DNA of 64,000 bases, taken from positions 2,880,001 through 2,944,000 of the forward strand of contig CM000152.2 of assembly GCA_000004695.1 (NCBI GenBank). Direction: 5' to 3'. This DNA comes from Dictyostelium discoideum. Taxonomy: Eukaryota. Each line of letters starts with the position of its first letter. Position 1 is the first letter of the stretch. The position numbers and the translations under genes are program-made. Below, piece by piece: positions 9,026 to 60,720 of the stretch. The notes under the pieces were generated by a model, which saw only the letters and a program-made list of their open reading frames with translations, searched no databases and was not told the origin of the DNA.

Positions 9026-9897
9026 TTATTTTTCAACCAATTCTTTCCATTGATTTGATTCATCATCAAATTCAAAATGATGATCAATTGAAGAACCAAG
9101 TAATAATAAAATTGAATCATCAATATTTAATACACTTGCTAATGAAACCAATTGATAATTTTCTTTTTTATTCATATAATCATCAGCTTCATCACCTGCG
9201 AAAATTCTCCAACCAGAATCATTTGGAAAGGTTCCATTCTCTCTAAAGATGTAACCAATGTGTTCTTTATCAACCAAAATACGATTACTAACCAAACATA
9301 ATTGATCAAATAATTGTTTGATTGAACCTGGTACACAATCTAAATCTGGATGATATAATTGATTTGGTTGATTATAAATCGAGAGGATATTATAATCAAA
9401 AAATTCGATTCTATCACCCAATTTCAATGATTTCAATTGATATGGATTATTATCCAATAATCCAGTGAATTTAATTGAATTATAACTAAACTCATCCATA
9501 TTATTATTACTACTATTTGGACTTCTAAGACCACCACCACTTCCATTATTTGATTGACTATTTACAAGTTTATTCTTTTCATCTTTATGAATATTTTTAG
9601 ATGAAGATGAAGATGATGAACCATTTTCATTTTCTTCATCACCATTATTATTATTATTATTATTATTACTTCCATGGAAAATTTCAATACCTTGTTTTAA
9701 TGATTGACCACAACTATTACTACTGGCAATATCATTGTTTGAATCATAAAGACATAGATCAATAATCTCAACAAACATTCTCTCTGCTTGATTACCTTCA
9801 CTAAAAATTAATTTAACTAAATCACCTTGTTTTAAATTTAATATTTGTTCTCTACTTGGTAAAGAGAATGTATATTTAAATTCATTTCCTCTTGTTA
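9026..9897 (-). CDS. uncharacterised conserved protein, exon 2 (contains GWRIFAGDEADDY motif)
   Basis: AG acceptor at 9899-9898 after an A-rich 170-bp intron. Frame joins VTRGNEFKYTFSLPSREQILNLKQGDLVKLIFSEGNQAER to the 9026..9778 ORF. Stop at 9026. Confidence 0.5.
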
Positions 9898-11600: not shown

Positions 11601-11892
11601 ATGTATAATAATAGTAATAGTAATAATAATAACGGTAGTAGAAAAAGATCAAGCCCACCATTATATATAAATAATAATAATAGTGGCAATTATATATCAC
11701 CACCCTCTCCATTATCGCCAAAACAAACCAATAATTTTCTTTTTAATAATGGTGGTTTTAATTCATTTGAAAATCCTCAACAACAATCTCCTCCACAACA
11801 ACAACAACTTTTATTTACATCACCAATACCAACTAGACCACAAAATCTATATCAATACATCGATGAAAATGAATTAAATACAGGTTATAATA

Positions 11893-11970
<78 letters not shown>

Positions 11971-12905
11971 GTAATAATAATAATAATAGTAATAATAATA
12001 ATAACAACAAAATGATAACTACAACCACTACTACAACCACAAAATCAAATAATGACTATAAGAAGAAAATAAAAAAACAAATTAATTTTAAATTGGATAA
12101 TTTACATGAAAGCAGTGAAGAGGAAGAAGAGGAACAACAAGAAGAAGAGGAAGAAGAAGAAGAAAAAGAAGAACTAAATTATATTAATAATAATAATAAT
12201 AAAAATGATGATGACAATAATAGTCAAGATGAAGATAAAGAAGAAGATAAATACCATGAAACTAATACAGATTTTGGATTATTAAGTGTTGCATCAAAAG
12301 AGGATTTAATGATTTGTTTAAATGTTTTAAAAAAAGAAATGGGTCAATTTAAAAATTTATCTCAAAATTTATTATCAAGATTACAAATATTAGAGAATGG
12401 TATTGGTCAAGAGAAAATGATAAGATTATTAAATAATAATAATAATTATAATATGAATGGTAGTAGTGATAGTAGTGATAGTAGTAATAGTAGTGGCCAT
12501 AGTAGAAATAATTCTGATGAAAATATGATCGATTGTTATTATGTCACTAGAAATAATAATAATAATAATACCAATTCATTATTAATACCACCAGCACCAC
12601 CACAATTACAACAACAACAACAACAACAACAATTTTATAGTCAAGATGCAGTTATGATTTCAACATACCTTTTAGAAGTTCAAAAGATTGTTGAAAAACA
12701 AAGACAATATGATAGTTTATTAGCACAAAGAGAAAAGTATTGGGATATTGAATTAAATAAAATTACAATGGCAATTTTAAATAAACTTGGTCCAAATCCA
12801 TCAACAACTGTTGATTTACTAAATTTACCAATGAATAATATGAACATTAATAAAAATAATAATAGTAATAATAATAATAATAATAATAATCATAATTATA
12901 ATAAA

Positions 12906-12937
<32 letters not shown>

Positions 12938-14057
12938 TTTTTCAAATTTTAATAATGATGATTGCTTTTATAATAGTAATAATAGTTGTAATAGTGAAGA
13001 TTTTGATTCATTTACAGCATTAAATAATATAAATAATAGTATTATAAGGAATCAAAGTAGTAATAGTTTAAATTTAAAGGATGATTCAGAGGAAACAAAT
13101 TTCAATAGTTTAAAATCTAAAACAAATAATATCTTTAAAAGATTTTATATTTATTTATTTGGAACTAAAAAAACAATTACATTTTGGAAAAAAGTTGCAA
13201 TCATTGCTATCATTGTAATAGTATGGCCTTTAATTGCAAATTTAACTTATAAATTTATTGTTTATTTAATAAATAAAAGAAGATTAGCTAAAACTCAACC
13301 ATTTATAATTGGAAATAATAATACTAGTAATTATAATAGTTCAACTGCAATTGGTAAAAGTTTAAAACCAATTAAATCTTCAATTTTAGTACCTTCATCT
13401 TCATCATTACCATCTTCATCTTCTTCATCATCATCCACTTCTTCGTCATCCAATTTATTATTACCTTCATCAATTAATAATGGCACTAATGCATTTAAAA
13501 AGATTAAATCGTCATTAATGAAAAAGAATTCCGATATAAGTAGTGGTGTTGGTAATGTTGTTAGCAGTGTTGCAAGTAATGTTGTTGGTGGTAGTGGTTC
13601 AGGGGTTGGTGCACCTGATTTTGTAAAAGCATTTATCCAAGGTGTTAGTACTGGTGATGGTGGTTCAAATGATAATTTAACAAATAATGCATTATCATCA
13701 ATTACAAATACATTTGGAAATTTAAATACAGTTGCAAACTCTTCAATTGCACCATCTATTGGTTCAGGTTTAATTGGATCTTCTATTTCTCCATCCTCTT
13801 CATCCTCCTCTTCATCATCTGCTAATACAGCATCAAATATAATTAATAATTTTACACCATCAGCTTTAAGTCAACTTAATTTACCTGGTAGTTCATCATC
13901 ATCATCATCTTTTAGTAATCCTGTTTCTTCAATTGCTAATAATTTTATGTCTGATTCAAATAGATCACCATCATCATCCTCATCATCATCCTCAAGTACA
14001 AGTGATTCAGAGAATGGAATGTTAAAATTAGTTAGAAATTTATTAACTCATAGATAA
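11601..14057 (+). CDS. Asn/Ser-rich protein with a predicted transmembrane segment (WKKVAIIAIIVIVWPLIANLTYKFIVYLI), function unknown
   Basis: Single 818-aa ORF from ATG 11601. Acidic block, poly-N, and a Ser-rich C-terminus. No recognisable catalytic domain. Confidence 0.5.
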
Positions 14058-14239: not shown

Positions 14240-14608
14240 TTATTTATTGGGAGTATTGGTGGTGGTGGTTGTGGTATTATTTAATACAGAATTTGAAGAT
14301 GAGTTTACACTATTACTATTACTATTATTATTGCTATTATTATTATTATTATTATTTTCATTATTTTGATTTGATAATTCAGTAGAGATCGATAACTTAT
14401 CAGTTGAATTAGAAACACTATTTTCATTACTATTATTATTTGTAAAGCTCGAGTTTTCAAACTCTTCCAATTCTTCTTCCAACATTTTTTGTTGTTCAAT
14501 GAACCATGTTGGTAATTTATTTGGAAATGTTACTAAATCAACATCAAAGAGTTCAATAAATTGTTCATTCACATATCTTGTATTACTTTGACCACTAAAT
14601 GCTTTATA
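14240..14608 (-). CDS. Siw14-like, exon 3 (YKAFSG...RYVNEQFIELFD... then N/S-rich tail)
   Basis: AG acceptor at 14610-14609. In frame with the 14240..14572 ORF. Stop at 14240. Confidence 0.6.
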   Translation of the reverse strand, partial: YKAFSGQSNTRYVNEQFIELFDVDLVTFPNKLPTWFIEQQKMLEEELEEFENSSFTNNNSNENSVSNSTDKLSISTELSNQNNENNNNNNNSNNNSNSNSVNSSSNSVLNNTTTTTTNTPNK

Positions 14609-14746
14609 CTTAAATTAATTGAAATTAATATTTATAATTTTAAATAAAATTTATATATCATATATAGCTTAATAATAATAATAATAATAATATTAAATGG
14701 AATATAAAAAAAAAAAAAAAAAAAAAAAAGTAAATAATAAATTTAC

Positions 14747-14953
14747 CTCGACTAAAATTGAAGTAAGATTCCAATTTTGTAATCTTCTTAAACAACCAAC
14801 TAATACACCAGTTTGATGAACACCTGATGTACACGTTATCATAAGTGGATAATAATCATAATTTAAAACAATTTCTAAACATTCTTTAATGAGTTCATCT
14901 GTTAATGGTTTCCATGATATGTCAACTTTCCATGATTTTAATCCTAAATGAAT
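14747..14953 (-). CDS. Siw14-like, exon 2 (P-loop region: MITCTSGVHQTGVLVGCLRRL)
   Basis: AG acceptor at 14955-14954, phase 0. The family HCxRGKHRTG P-loop is replaced here by TCTSGVHQTG. GTAAAT donor at 14746. Confidence 0.65.
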
Positions 14954-15044
14954 CTAGTAATAATAATAAAAATAAAAATTATTAATAACATTTTAAATAA
15001 AATCAATTAAATAAATAAAAAAATAAAAATAAAAATAAACATAC

Positions 15045-15662
15045 TAAATTAATATTATTTTCTTGAAAAAAGCTTGAAACAGCTTTAATTGGTACTTCTG
15101 GTGATAATTGTACGACAGTTTTTAAACCTAATAATTTAATAAAAGGAAAGTTTGCAGGATATAATGAATTTGTTCTATATAATAAGGGTTCAATTGTACC
15201 AAAGAGAGCTGGTGGTGATAATTGTGGTGGACCACTTTGAATTAATGAATTTATATGAGTTTGTTGTATTAATTTTTGTTTTTGTTCTTCTTTTTTAACT
15301 TGTTGTTGTTGTTGTAATGTACTCGTTATAGTTTGTGGTATTGATTGTAATATTGATTGTGATTGTAATAATGGTGTTGTTGATTGTTGTTGTTGTTGTT
15401 GTTGTTGCTGCTGTTGTGGCTGCTGTGGTTGTTGTTGTTGTGGCTGTTGTGGCTGTTGTTGTTGTGATTGATTTTGTGAAGTTTTTGATTTTGATGGTGT
15501 TAATGGTACTTTATATATTTGTTGTTGTTGCTGCTGTGGCTGCTTCACATTTTGATTTGATACTATATTTACAGAAGATGAGGAAGTTTTTAAAATTTGT
15601 TCGGTTTCATTGTTATTATTGTTATTATCGATTTCACTATTTTCATTTGCGTTGGAACTCAT
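15045..15662 (-). CDS. Siw14/PFA-DSP (Y_phosphatase2)-like protein, exon 1 (Q-rich N-terminus plus start of phosphatase fold)
   Basis: ATG at 15662. LYRTNSLYPANFPFIKLLGLKTVVQLSPE matches the PFA-DSP family N-terminal motif. GTATGT donor at 15044-15039. Confidence 0.65.
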
Positions 15663-15928: not shown

Positions 15929-17515
15929 TTAATATAAATAAAATTCATATTTCTTTTTAAATATTTTATTAAACATTTTCCAAATTAAATCTTGATCAAC
16001 AATTTTTAATTTACCAATTAATGGAAAAAAGAATCTAAAATCATTTAGTTGATAATGAGTATCAAGAATCCAAATTGATTCTAATGATGGTGGTAAAGAA
16101 TTAATTGAAATTGGAGTTTCATTATTTAAAACTATAATATATTTTAAAGAGATTGGTAACCATTTCATATGAATTGGTTGTTTAAATGCACAACCTAATT
16201 CTAAAAGTTCTAATGATGGTGGTAATGTATCGAATTTAATTGTTGAATTATAATTACCAATTCTTAGACACTTTAATTTTGTAAAAACTTTAAAATCTTT
16301 AACTGGTTTAGAATAGAAATTATAATCAAATTCATTTAAATTTAAATTTATTAAATCAGAAAGACAAGATTTTGAATGGTAGTCTAATTTGTAATTATTT
16401 TCAATAATATTTACTTTAATAGATTTAATTTTTTCAAATTTATCTAATAATAATTTAGAAGTTTCTTTATATAACCAATATTTTAATAGATTTGATTTTG
16501 TTAAATTTAAATTTATTGAACTAAATTGTGATGATAAATAATAACCTTGAAGTGAATCTTGAAATGTATTAAAAAATATCGTTACATTTTTAACTGATGA
16601 TGGTATAATTTTTGAATTTAATTTTAAAATTTTTAATATTTCATCATTTGATGATAAATTACCATTTTTATTATAAACTTTTAATTTTAAATATTTTGAT
16701 TTTTCATTATATTTGTTTTTAATATTATCATTATCATTATCATTTATTTGAACACCAAAATTTGAAATTTTAAGGTTTTTAAGTTTTTTTGGTAAAATAC
16801 CTTTAATTAAAGAAATATTAAATTTACTTGGTAATGATAATTTCTTTAATGTCCATGGTAGTTTATTTGAATTAATTAATTTATTAAAAAGTGAATTTGA
16901 GGGAAATTTAATTTCTTTAATTAATTGAGGTAAATTATCTAATGATTTATCAAAAAAGTAACCAAATATAATAGTTTTTAAATATTTTGGTAAAACATTC
17001 TCATTTAATTCTTGATTAAAATATTTCCCAAATTTTAACTTTTTCAATGTATTTGGTAAAATGTTTACATCAATTTTTTGATTAAAATTTGAACCAAACT
17101 CTAATATTGTTAAATTTGAAAATACTCTATTTGAACCAACCTCTAATGGTATATTAAAATTAAATGGAATTATTAATTTATAAAGTGATTTTGGTAATTC
17201 TAAATTTGATAAACTATAATTAATAAAATTTGTTTGATATAATATTATTGATTCAATATCTTTTGGTAAATCATTTAATTTTTCACCAATTTCATATATT
17301 TCATATTGTTTTGCATCTTTTTGAATATCATCAACTTTTACAAATAATGATTTAACATATTGTATATTATTTTTTATGAATGGTTGTAAAGATGAATCTA
17401 AATCAACTGGAAATGAAACTAAATTATACATCATTAAATGTTTGAAAATTAATTTATTTAATACAACATTTCTCCATATTTTAAAAAATAAAATAGAGTT
17501 ATCATTATTATTCAT
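15929..17515 (-). CDS. FNIP-repeat protein (Dictyostelium FNIP repeat family)
   Basis: Single ORF. N-terminal ILFFKIWRNVVLNKLIFKHL, then many copies of the LP(K/N)(S/T)L..L.FG..FNQ.L repeat. True ATG at 17515; the track start at 17545 is a TTG. Confidence 0.7.
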   Translation of the reverse strand: MNNNDNSILFFKIWRNVVLNKLIFKHLMMYNLVSFPVDLDSSLQPFIKNNIQYVKSLFVKVDDIQKDAKQYEIYEIGEKLNDLPKDIESIILYQTNFINYSLSNLELPKSLYKLIIPFNFNIPLEVGSNRVFSNLTILEFGSNFNQKIDVNILPNTLKKLKFGKYFNQELNENVLPKYLKTIIFGYFFDKSLDNLPQLIKEIKFPSNSLFNKLINSNKLPWTLKKLSLPSKFNISLIKGILPKKLKNLKISNFGVQINDNDNDNIKNKYNEKSKYLKLKVYNKNGNLSSNDEILKILKLNSKIIPSSVKNVTIFFNTFQDSLQGYYLSSQFSSINLNLTKSNLLKYWLYKETSKLLLDKFEKIKSIKVNIIENNYKLDYHSKSCLSDLINLNLNEFDYNFYSKPVKDFKVFTKLKCLRIGNYNSTIKFDTLPPSLELLELGCAFKQPIHMKWLPISLKYIIVLNNETPISINSLPPSLESIWILDTHYQLNDFRFFFPLIGKLKIVDQDLIWKMFNKIFKKKYEFYLY

Positions 17516-18411
17516 TTTGAGAATAATTTTTTTTTTTTTTCCCAATCTTGATAATAAGTTGTTTTTGTAACTGTTGTTGTAGTTTTTGTTTATTTTCTAT
17601 TATATTTTTTTTTTTTTTCTCTCTTTCCCTTGTTATTTGTTTTTGTTGGTAAAAATTGAAAAAAAGTGAGAAAAAGTGGTAAATCAAAATGCAAATTCTC
17701 TTAAATATTTCTAAAAAAAAAAAATCAAAAAAAAAAAAAAAAAAAGTCTTCAAAAATAACAAAAAATTTTTTTTATCGCAAAACAAATAGATATTTTTTT
17801 TTTACCACTTGATATTTTATTAGAATTTGATTAAATAATAATACTTGAAAATAAAAATAAAAATAAAATAAAATAAAAAAACAATATAACAAAAAACAAT
17901 TTTATAAACTTCTTTTTATTTTTGTTAATCATTTGGTTTTTTTTTTATTTACTAATTAATAATTAATGGTCATTCACTGTATAAAAATTTTTTTTCCTGA
18001 CTGTAACAAGTTATTTTTTCCAATAAGAAATTATTCAGTTTTTTTTTATTATTTTTAAAATTATATAAGTAATATATAATTTGTTGATAATTTTTATTTG
18101 AAAAATATATACAATCAAAATGGATAATAAATTACATGATGATTTAATGATAGGATATTTGAGCTAAATATAGAAAAAATTATTTTTTAATTGAGTATAT
18201 CATTTATGGAACCAAAATGAAAAAATTAAAAAATAACAAATGATCACATTCAATTTTTTTATATTTTACATCATTTAAGGTATTTGAGTGTTCTTTTTAT
18301 ACTAAATCCATATTAAAAATAAATAAAATTAAATCATAAAAAAAAAAAAAACATTCAAATTTACATTTTTATTTGTCAATCTTTTTTTTTTTTTTTTTTT
18401 TTTGGCATTTT

Positions 18412-19121: not shown

Positions 19122-20185
19122 TTATTTATAATTTGAAGTAGTATTAGAAGTGTTAGTTTCACAATCAATATTAAATTTTAACCAATGATTTCTTTCAAAG
19201 AATTCTAAAAGTCTATGAATTTTAACTTGATTTAATTTAATTAGTTTAAAAGCGGTTGATAATTTAATTACACCTTGAGTTTTTAAAGATTCAGAGATTA
19301 ATGCTTGTTTGACAATTAGGTATTGTTGTGGTAAAAGTTTATGAGTTGTACAAATTTGTTTCTCTTTTAATGAGAGTGCATCAGCATTTGGTAAACCTTC
19401 CAATTCCATTTTAGCATTCTTTTTCAATTTACTTGAATGATGTTTCCTATTCTCACCAATACCTAAATAAATATCTTCTTTTTCTTTAGTTAATTGTTTT
19501 TGAGTTTTAAATGATGGATCACCACCACCACCACCACCTCCACCACTACCACCACTTAATCCACTACTACTACCACCTAAATAATGATGACCAAATGGAT
19601 TATGATTTGGATTGTATGAACTTAATCCACTATTTAAACTATATGATGCCAATTCAGATTTGGAACGTTTCATAGATTTATCAACTTCACGTTTTCTTTT
19701 ATCTTCATCAAAATTTTGACCATCTGCCAATGTTTTAATACCATTTTCACGATACTCTTGTAATTGTAGAATTCTATTCTTTATATTCTTTTCATTTATT
19801 AATCCATTTATCATTGATTCATGCTCTTCTTTGGTAACTGTTTGAAGGAAACATTTCAATGAATTTAATATCTCTTTATCATCTTTGTATCGTTTTCTCT
19901 CTACTTTTCTATAATCTAATAAACCTTTCTCAACAATGAAATTCCTTCTTCTAATACGTTCATCCAATCTTTGATCATAGGATTCTAATACATTCAATTT
20001 AATATCTCTATCTGCTTGACTATCGTCAGGTTCAAATGTTAAATCCTTTACAACCAACTCTGCTTCATTATCATATTCTACTTCAAAATGTCCTCTATTC
20101 TTCATATATCCAACTGAATCTGTTACTGGTCCACTTGGTCCTTCTTCACCATGACTATTTCTATGATTTAATTTTTTACTTTTAT
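19122..20185 (-). CDS. ADA2, exon 2 (ADA2 middle region and C-terminal SWIRM domain)
   Basis: AG acceptor at 20187-20186. GYMKNRGHFEVEYDNEAELVVKDL...RRRNFIVEKGLLDYRK aligns to human TADA2A GYMPARADFIEEFDNYAEWDL...RDHGLINLRK. The C-terminus LLPQQYLIVKQALISE is SWIRM. Confidence 0.7.
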
Positions 20186-60646: not shown

Positions 60647-60717
60647 GCGTATGTGGTCTAGTGGTATGATGCATCCCTGCCACGGATGCGAACTGGGTTC
60701 GATTCCCAGCATACGCA
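60647..60717 (+). tRNA. tRNA-Gly (anticodon GCC)
   Basis: 71-nt cloverleaf. Acceptor GCGTATG/CATACGC with discriminator A. Anticodon stem CATCC/GGATG with loop CTGCCAC. T arm CTGGG-TTCGATT-CCCAG. Internal A and B boxes. T6 run immediately downstream. Confidence 0.85.
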
Positions 60718-60720
60718 CAA

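Follow-up and report, generated by a model that had tools for sequence, protein, structure and literature searches.

DDB_G0280073 of Dictyostelium discoideum, a candidate pseudophosphatase of the Siw14/PFA-DSP fold with a conserved arginine-less P-loop

The window analysed here is a 64,000-nucleotide stretch of the Dictyostelium discoideum genome (contig CM000152.2, positions 2,880,001 to 2,944,000), and it carries, on the minus strand from 15662 to 14240, the three-exon gene DDB_G0280073, which encodes a candidate pseudophosphatase with the fold of the Siw14/PFA-DSP phosphatases and a P-loop from which the catalytic arginine is missing. The whole coding sequence, start to stop codon, occupies 14240..15662, and its spliced product of 397 amino acids is residue-for-residue XP_641226.1 / DDB_G0280073 / UniProt Q54VX9 of D. 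discoideum AX4, as found by exact-sequence look-up; because of this identity, the three-exon model drawn from the letters alone in the first-pass annotation is the same as the deposited one. The product is named 'hypothetical protein' by NCBI and 'Protein-tyrosine-phosphatase' by UniRef, and since the arginine of the Cys-X5-Arg (CX5R) motif is absent, the UniProt name of Q54VX9 is probably a misannotation or over-annotation. Similar phosphatase names are attached to several of its relatives found in database searches.

Exon 1 (15045..15662; all features of the gene are on the minus strand) encodes residues 1-206 of the spliced translation, comprising the N-terminus and the start of the phosphatase-like domain, and the Q-rich low-complexity N-terminus, residues 1-140, takes up 15243..15662 within it. 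This is followed by intron 1 (14954..15044; 91 nucleotides, GTATGT...AG), by exon 2 (14747..14953), which encodes residues 207-275 and includes the P-loop, and by intron 2 (14609..14746; 138 nucleotides, GTAAAT...AG), which has a long poly-T/poly-A tract inside. Exon 3 (14240..14608) encodes residues 276-397 and the stop codon, covering the end of the domain, a clade-specific C-terminal motif and helix, and an N/S-rich C-terminal tail (residues 331-397). Both introns have GT..AG borders and the exon junctions are all in phase 0. The junction at intron 1 (ENNINL|IHLGLK) is gap-free against the transcript-derived Physarum homologue (P0003), and the junction at intron 2 (TSILVE|YKAFSG) is gap-free against homologues. 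Every one of the four flanking family motifs quoted earlier was found in the protein, LYRTNSLYP at residues 161-169, NFPFIKLLGLKTVVQLSPE at 171-189, GVLVGCLRRLQNWN at 255-268 and EYKAFSG at 275-281, the last spanning intron 2. The P-loop codons for C247 T248 S249 G250 V251 H252 Q253 (TGT ACA TCA GGT GTT CAT CAA) are at 14813..14833, running from 14833 down to 14813, and not at 14806-14826, where they had first been placed.

The match to the family profile PF03162 (Y_phosphatase2) spans residues 150-305 (14519..15215, with both introns inside) and scores 139.9 bits against a cut-off of 27 (E 7.8e-41). An AlphaFold2 model, built from a 57-sequence alignment, had a mean predicted local distance difference test score (pLDDT) of 92.8 and a predicted template modelling score (pTM) of 0.88. 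The best 24 Foldseek matches of this model in the Protein Data Bank (PDB) were all chains of AtPFA-DSP1 or Siw14, with template modelling (TM) scores of 0.81-0.89, normalised to the target, and the top structures (7mol, 1xri and 6byf) had TM 0.82-0.89 on the same normalisation and E 1e-14 to 5e-13. A phmmer search of the PDB sequences agreed with this (AtPFA-DSP1 E 9e-26, Siw14 E 8e-23). Identity to these two enzymes is 35-36%, with two short indels only, an insertion of two residues in the WPD-equivalent loop and one residue near Q282. The Siw14/PFA-DSP fold assigned at first reading is thereby upheld, both by the profile and by the crystal structures closest to the model, and the fold is intact. 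Past the point where the crystallised PFA-DSP/Siw14 sequences used for comparison stop, the protein continues into the motif FDVDLVTFPNKLPTWF (residues 296-311, 14501..14548) and a long helix predicted at about 309-328, as seen in the alignment and the model. This motif, of the form FDxDLVxLPxxLPxWF, is common to the arginine-less group of relatives described below, in which its core is nearly invariant and is followed by the confidently predicted helix; yeast OCA1 and OCA6 have a weaker form of it.

In the P-loop, DDB_G0280073 reads T-C-T-S-G-V-H-Q, whereas the active enzymes read H-C-(K/N)-R-G-K-H-R. In the phmmer alignment C247-TSGVH-Q253 stands gap-free opposite C150-KRGKH-R156 of AtPFA-DSP1 and C-NRGKH-R of Siw14, and therefore the substitutions first proposed (Arg to Ser, Lys to Val and the catalytic Arg to Gln, with the Cys kept) are correct, having Gln253 and not an arginine at the CX5R position against both enzymes. 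Further changes affect the His preceding the Cys and the K/N at position 2 of the loop, both of which are Thr. In comparison with the HC(K/N)RGKHR loop of active PFA-DSP/Siw14 enzymes, TCTSGVHQ has the Cys in place, Gln for the Arg and Thr for the His.

The substitutions extend to the pocket. The substrate and transition state of AtPFA-DSP1 are contacted by K151, R152, K154, H155, R156 and K186, Asp191 is hydrogen-bonded to His155, Arg188 stabilises the carbonyl of Asp191 and makes a pi-cation interaction with His155, and the WPD-equivalent loop consists of G118, N119 and K120 (PMC9038691). From AtPFA-DSP1 to DDB_G0280073, the replacements are H149 to T246, K151 to T248, R152 to S249, K154 to V251, R156 to Q253, K186 to N284 and D191 to N289, so that of the basic pocket and the His155-Asp191 pair only the equivalents of H155 and R188 remain. 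The equivalents of C150, H155, R188 (R286) and K120 (K215) are kept, as are Gly250 (equivalent to G153) and Thr254-Gly255, and the WPD-equivalent loop is S213, W214 and K215. The net charge of the P-loop is 0, compared with +4 in AtPFA-DSP1 and +3 in Siw14.

The orthologue in D. purpureum (locus L001), with a spliced protein of 337 amino acids, has the same TCTSGVHQ, written with synonymous P-loop codons (TGC and TCG, for TGT and TCA in D. discoideum). Over 188 aligned domain codons, the two species have 8 amino-acid and 54 synonymous codon differences, giving a nonsynonymous rate (dN) of 0.043, a synonymous rate (dS) of 0.86 and a dN/dS of about 0.05, which indicates strong purifying selection on the domain. 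The position of intron 1 is common to both species. Intron 2 falls between codons 275 and 276 in D. discoideum (14609-14746), while the second intron of D. purpureum (L001 3374-3446) is 27 codons upstream, inside the Thr248 codon of the P-loop, a case of loss and gain of an intron, or of its sliding, between D. discoideum and D. purpureum. Since the loop is in the middle of exon 2, and since D. purpureum has the same loop despite its shifted intron, the reading TCTSGVHQ is not a sequencing or splicing artefact. The explanation that a faulty gene model or sequence, or a decaying pseudogene, hides a true protein with a normal CX5R is refuted by the uninterrupted frame of exon 2, the identity of the product with the deposited protein, and the dN/dS of 0.05 together with the shared loop, which exclude both a decaying gene and an artefact; Cavenderia, Physarum and many others have this loop too, and the probability left for this explanation is negligible. 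With its CX5R arginine and basic pocket residues replaced, yet under strong purifying selection, DDB_G0280073 can be retained as a candidate pseudophosphatase.

The Q-rich N-terminal extension, previously regarded as atypical of the family, is real, with 47 Gln among residues 1-140, but it is not peculiar to this protein, as the D. purpureum orthologue has a comparable one. The Cavenderia homologue is also long (360 amino acids), and the Physarum homologue has 192 amino acids. Little of the Q-rich N-terminus or of the N/S-rich tail at the other end is conserved between D. discoideum and D. purpureum, as expected of low-complexity sequence in Dictyostelium, and the N-terminus looks like an ordinary stretch of this kind and not like a functional trait of the gene.

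Relatives were collected with a word-indexed search of 5.8 billion proteins, which gave 155 matches at E<=1e-5, and with an exhaustive HMMER scan of 1.84 billion cluster representatives, which gave 2221 relatives at E<=1e-3 and 144 at E<=1e-30; the loop residues were counted over 244 relatives, each of at least 150 amino acids. Domain identity with DDB_G0280073 is 96% in D. purpureum, 74% in Physarum, 64% in Balamuthia, 50-57% in Gigaspora, Endogone, Galdieria, Sphaeroforma and Plasmodiophora (Mucoromycota, red algae, Ichthyosporea and Rhizaria) and 45% in oomycetes, and identities to these arginine-less relatives are far above the value for Siw14 and AtPFA-DSP1. The arginine is absent from nearly all of the 155 word-search matches, and the loops from the HMMER scan agree. 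At the arginine position the 244 relatives have Gln (73), Glu (65), Leu (29), Phe (20) and, in 17 cases (7%), Arg, and the identifiable relatives that retain CX5R belong to Sporobolomyces and Bigelowiella. A neutral loop, C-[TSA]-[ST]-G-[VI]-H-[QE], is kept in Amoebozoa, early-branching fungi, Ichthyosporea, oomycetes, Rhizaria and red algae. In AtPFA-DSP1 numbering, position 151 is T/S/A in 73% of the relatives, 152 is S/T in 81%, 154 is V/I/L in 76%, G153 is kept in 240 of 244 (98%) and H155 in 190 (78%). With its intervening positions small and neutral, the loop is a specific non-basic sequence that is being maintained, and not the result of drift. The arginine-less loop is ancient, widespread in eukaryotes and actively maintained. 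The earlier call of a candidate pseudophosphatase stands, for a protein that did not arise recently within Dictyostelium.

The nucleophile position is less constant than the neutral loop around it, being Cys in 169 of the 244 relatives, Asp in 57 and Ser in 13, with the Cys lost to Asp or Ser in 70 (29%). The change from Cys to Asp was observed in Mortierellomycota, red algae and other lineages (P0039-P0051, P0037, P0059 and others), and these relatives often have a Cys one residue earlier (VCDTSGIHQ), the remaining loop being conserved.

These counts bear on whether DDB_G0280073 is still an enzyme, one that would rely on Cys247 and His252 for a non-canonical hydrolase or transferase activity towards a less charged substrate, as the retention of the Cys and of the His (190 of 244) in a loop of specific, conserved sequence might suggest. 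This explanation is considered unlikely. The sequences with Asp or Ser for Cys are scattered over the arginine-less part of the tree described below, and therefore Cys chemistry cannot be the shared function of the clade; in addition, the His before the Cys, which lowers the pKa of the Cys in protein tyrosine phosphatases (PTPs), has been lost, and loss of the CX5R arginine in PTPs cuts kcat by orders of magnitude. Some conserved families labelled 'pseudophosphatase' have been noted to be still active (PMC13216928), and the mechanism of PFA-DSPs is itself unusual in having no general-acid Asp (PMC9038691); against this, recombinant ScOca1, which retains CX5R intact, was inactive on the generic substrates p-nitrophenyl phosphate (pNPP) and 3-O-methylfluorescein phosphate (OMFP) and on a phosphoinositide (PMC13573052).

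The same position weighs on a role as a redox sensor, in which Cys247, together with the nearby Cys of GCLRR, would report oxidative stress to partner proteins. Cys247 is kept in DDB_G0280073, all 57 aligned sequences have the Cys260 of GCLRR, OCA1 was discovered through the response to lipid hydroperoxide, and the activity of PFA-DSPs is inhibited when the active-site Cys is oxidised (PMC13573052), so that such a role would echo the 'oxidant-induced cell-cycle arrest' phenotype behind the name OCA1. However, the replacement of Cys247 by Asp or Ser in 29% of the relatives makes this very improbable, and the GCLRR Cys may be structural only, because active enzymes carry it too.

It had also been suggested that the protein could still bind phosphotyrosine or inositol pyrophosphate ligands, and a phospho-ligand reader, whose dead pocket binds either one and sequesters or senses it without hydrolysis, was considered as an explanation. 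The P-loop backbone, Gly250, His252, Thr254-Gly255 and Arg286 (the R188 equivalent) are kept, AtPFA-DSP1 holds the phosphate largely through backbone amides of the P-loop (PMC9038691), and pseudophosphatases that trap their substrate, STYX among them, form a known class (cited in PMC13573052). The pocket, however, has lost its positive charge, and because of this loss the suggested binding finds little support: the net charge of the P-loop is 0 or lower in 199 of the 244 relatives, the Glu at the arginine position of 65 of them should repel phosphate, K186 is Asn in DDB_G0280073 (Lys or Arg in 158 relatives), D191 is Asn both here and in 162 relatives, and the Cys is lost in 70. The highly anionic inositol pyrophosphates (PP-InsPs) need a basic cluster that is missing from DDB_G0280073 (PMC9038691). 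On this evidence, a reader of this kind is judged quite unlikely.

The arginine-less proteins can be placed with respect to the OCA clade, which has been described as the sister of the PFA-DSPs, sharing their fold with a substituted active site, found in fungi and protists, absent from animals, and formed by predicted pseudophosphatases (PMC13573052, where the clade is credited to Roma-Mateo et al. 2011 and Chen et al. 2017). A PFA-DSP-like protein with a substituted or deleted HCxxGxHR active site belongs to this clade (PMC13573052), and this is what DDB_G0280073 has. The yeast loops are CCGMGRHR in ScOca1, HSNKGKHR in ScOca2, deleted in ScOca4 and HCTNGELI in ScOca6 (PMC13573052). A neighbor-joining (NJ) tree was built from 59 sequences and 177 columns with Kimura distances and 100 bootstraps, the rooting being imposed on AtPFA-DSP1 and Siw14. 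Approximate ScOca1 and ScOca6 sequences served as search probes only, and the analyses were made on the database sequences found with them; the 120 matches listed for OCA1 (P0268-P0387) do not include S. cerevisiae Oca1, and the orthologues of Eremothecium, Candida, Nakaseomyces and Naumovozyma were used.

All OCA-type sequences were set apart from the two PFA-DSP outgroups with a bootstrap of 81-91, and a clade with a bootstrap of 97 joined DDB_G0280073, the other arginine-less proteins, OCA1 and proteins with a CxxGRHR loop, such as that of Sporobolomyces; a few arginine-retaining sequences were nested among the arginine-less ones. DDB_G0280073 was assigned to the OCA clade because the tree groups it with OCA1 and its relatives, and the profile scores agree with this, although they are indecisive, as with the OCA1 profile it scores 132 bits and AtPFA-DSP1 125 bits, barely apart. 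Orthology with yeast OCA6, whose loop also begins with C-T-x-G and lacks the arginine, was considered and rejected, since OCA6 is monophyletic (bootstrap 100) outside the clade of DDB_G0280073, and the OCA6 profile gives the latter 81 bits, below the 90 bits of AtPFA-DSP1. Nor was it taken as a one-to-one orthologue of yeast OCA1, whose CX5R-retaining CCGMGRHR loop is not matched by TCTSGVHQ; the eight Saccharomycotina OCA1 sequences in the tree all read CCGMGRHRTG, where DDB_G0280073 reads TCTSGVHQTG. DDB_G0280073 is therefore placed as an OCA clade member nearest to OCA1 and its relatives, and not as the one-to-one orthologue of a yeast gene.

Here it is proposed, as the probable explanation, that DDB_G0280073 is an OCA-clade protein of the PFA-DSP fold without canonical Cys-based phosphatase chemistry, which would have been kept by selection as a non-catalytic partner or regulatory subunit. 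Small neutral residues stand in place of the catalytic arginine and of the basic side chains with which AtPFA-DSP1 and Siw14 hold inositol pyrophosphate, and this neutral loop is conserved, along with the C-terminal motif and helix, in distant eukaryotes under strong purifying selection. The pocket itself would neither bind nor hydrolyse a phospho-ligand. The protein would most likely act instead by protein-protein interaction, as partner, scaffold or allosteric regulator of a competent PFA-DSP enzyme, for which DDB_G0285909 is named in the literature as a candidate DdPFA-DSP1 in Dictyostelium, and through this partner it could tune the turnover of 5- and 6-InsP7 and InsP8. This mechanism is drawn by analogy from the genetics, the interactions and the SIW14 suppression of the yeast OCA proteins. 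In yeast, when OCA genes are lost, cells become sensitive to caffeine and rapamycin, as they do on loss of SIW14, which encodes an inositol pyrophosphate phosphatase. All OCA deletions resemble the siw14 deletion in genetic-interaction and chemogenomic profiles, and physical interactions are known for all OCA proteins save Oca6 (PMC8421204). OCA proteins co-purify, the phenotypes of oca mutants are suppressed by SIW14 overexpression, and the roles of these proteins are 'not defined', possibly modulating an active enzyme (PMC13573052). The part of the proposal that DDB_G0280073 is not a canonical phosphatase is considerably more secure than the part that it regulates a PP-InsP phosphatase.

Several points weigh against this proposal of a non-catalytic partner. 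Neither Cys247 nor His252 has been lost in Dictyostelium or in the majority of relatives, which could mean that a residual or altered chemistry persists. Within the clade of bootstrap 97, the split between the arginine-less group and OCA1 with the CxxGRHR proteins has bootstraps of 28-35, and the NJ tree left out Oca2 and Oca4 and used a distance method only. Identity with OCA1 is about 36% only, so the functional analogy rests on distant yeast proteins, and the literature search found no mention of DDB_G0280073 and, on PFA-DSPs of Dictyostelium, a single sentence, the one that names DDB_G0285909.

A further-reaching form of the proposal, possible although doubtful, is that the arginine-less group is a distinct and very ancient paralogue, dating from about the last eukaryotic common ancestor, whose neutral pocket and C-terminal helix form a dedicated interface and which is an obligate partner of an active PFA-DSP. 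Conservation in the group, whose members are 50-74% identical between eukaryotic supergroups, far exceeds that of the yeast OCA proteins, and this slowly evolving subgroup was not singled out in the OCA-clade literature found. If this were true, no better starting point could be had for working out the function of OCA proteins than this slowly evolving protein of Dictyostelium.

The concept of OCA-type pseudophosphatases has already been published and DDB_G0280073 had already been annotated; because of the former, the gain made here is incremental. What is new includes an arginine-less state that is ancient, widespread and actively maintained, the conserved C-terminal extension, the improbability of phospho-ligand binding and a UniProt name that is probably wrong. 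The subgroup exceeds the yeast OCA proteins by far both in conservation and in the breadth of its distribution. A non-catalytic function can thereby be put to the test in Dictyostelium, which makes both 5- and 6-InsP7, lends itself to genetics and has unusually high levels of InsP7 and InsP8.

Around the gene, the convergent downstream neighbour (11601-14057, plus strand) encodes an 818-amino-acid Asn/Ser-rich protein without a Pfam match, and in D. purpureum a 762-amino-acid protein, also without a Pfam match, has the same convergent position (L001 3883-6171), which is consistent with conserved synteny. The upstream neighbour (15929-17545, minus strand) encodes a 538-amino-acid FNIP-repeat protein with at least four repeats (PF05725, E 2.6e-33). 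An open reading frame (ORF) of 250 amino acids (9026-9778, minus strand) has an Imm33 immunity-protein domain (PF09951, E 1.4e-33), a domain described from bacterial polymorphic-toxin immunity proteins; that a Dictyostelium chromosome carries it could be due to horizontal transfer, or to a use in eukaryotes that has gone unrecognised. The ORF at 19122-20105 (minus strand), with a TADA2A-like domain (PF22941, E 6e-23) and SWIRM (PF04433), is probably an exon of an Ada2-type transcriptional adaptor, to judge from these domains. The sole tRNA gene of the window is a tRNA-Gly (GCC) at 60647-60718 (plus strand).

Among known systems, the STYX and MK-STYX proteins resemble DDB_G0280073 in having the PTP fold and a disabled CX5R, in being kept by selection and in being thought to act via binding. 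STYX, of an animal subfamily, has Gly for the Cys, keeps the Arg and binds phospho-ligands, in contrast to DDB_G0280073, which has lost the Arg and the basic pocket, keeps the Cys and belongs to another subfamily, without animal members. The active inositol pyrophosphate phosphatases ScSiw14 (6BYF, 6E3B) and AtPFA-DSP1 (1XRI, 7MOD-7MOM), a group characterised by removal of the 5-beta-phosphate from 5-InsP7 and InsP8, have the same fold, and the equivalents of their Cys, Gly153, His155, Thr-Gly and Arg188 are kept; however, DDB_G0280073 is without equivalents of H149, K151, R152, K154, R156, K186 and D191, has a P-loop charge of 0, and has, in addition to the two-residue insertion, a Trp in the WPD-equivalent loop, and the extra C-terminal motif and helix. 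With the OCA clade (Oca1, Oca2, Oca4 and Oca6), which accounts for the largest fungal group of pseudophosphatases (PMC13216928), it has in common PF03162, the PFA-DSP fold and a substituted HCxxGxHR, and its C-terminal FD...P-x-W extension is also present in OCA1 and, in weaker form, in OCA6; in contrast, TCTSGVHQ equals none of the four yeast loops, and its subgroup evolves much more slowly than the yeast OCA proteins. OCA1 (the YNL099C family) is the nearest named yeast family by the tree, sharing GCLRRL..WNL and a C-terminal extension that ends in P-x-W-L/F, but its C-GMGRH-R keeps the Cys-X5-Arg, whereas DDB_G0280073 has Gln at the arginine position.

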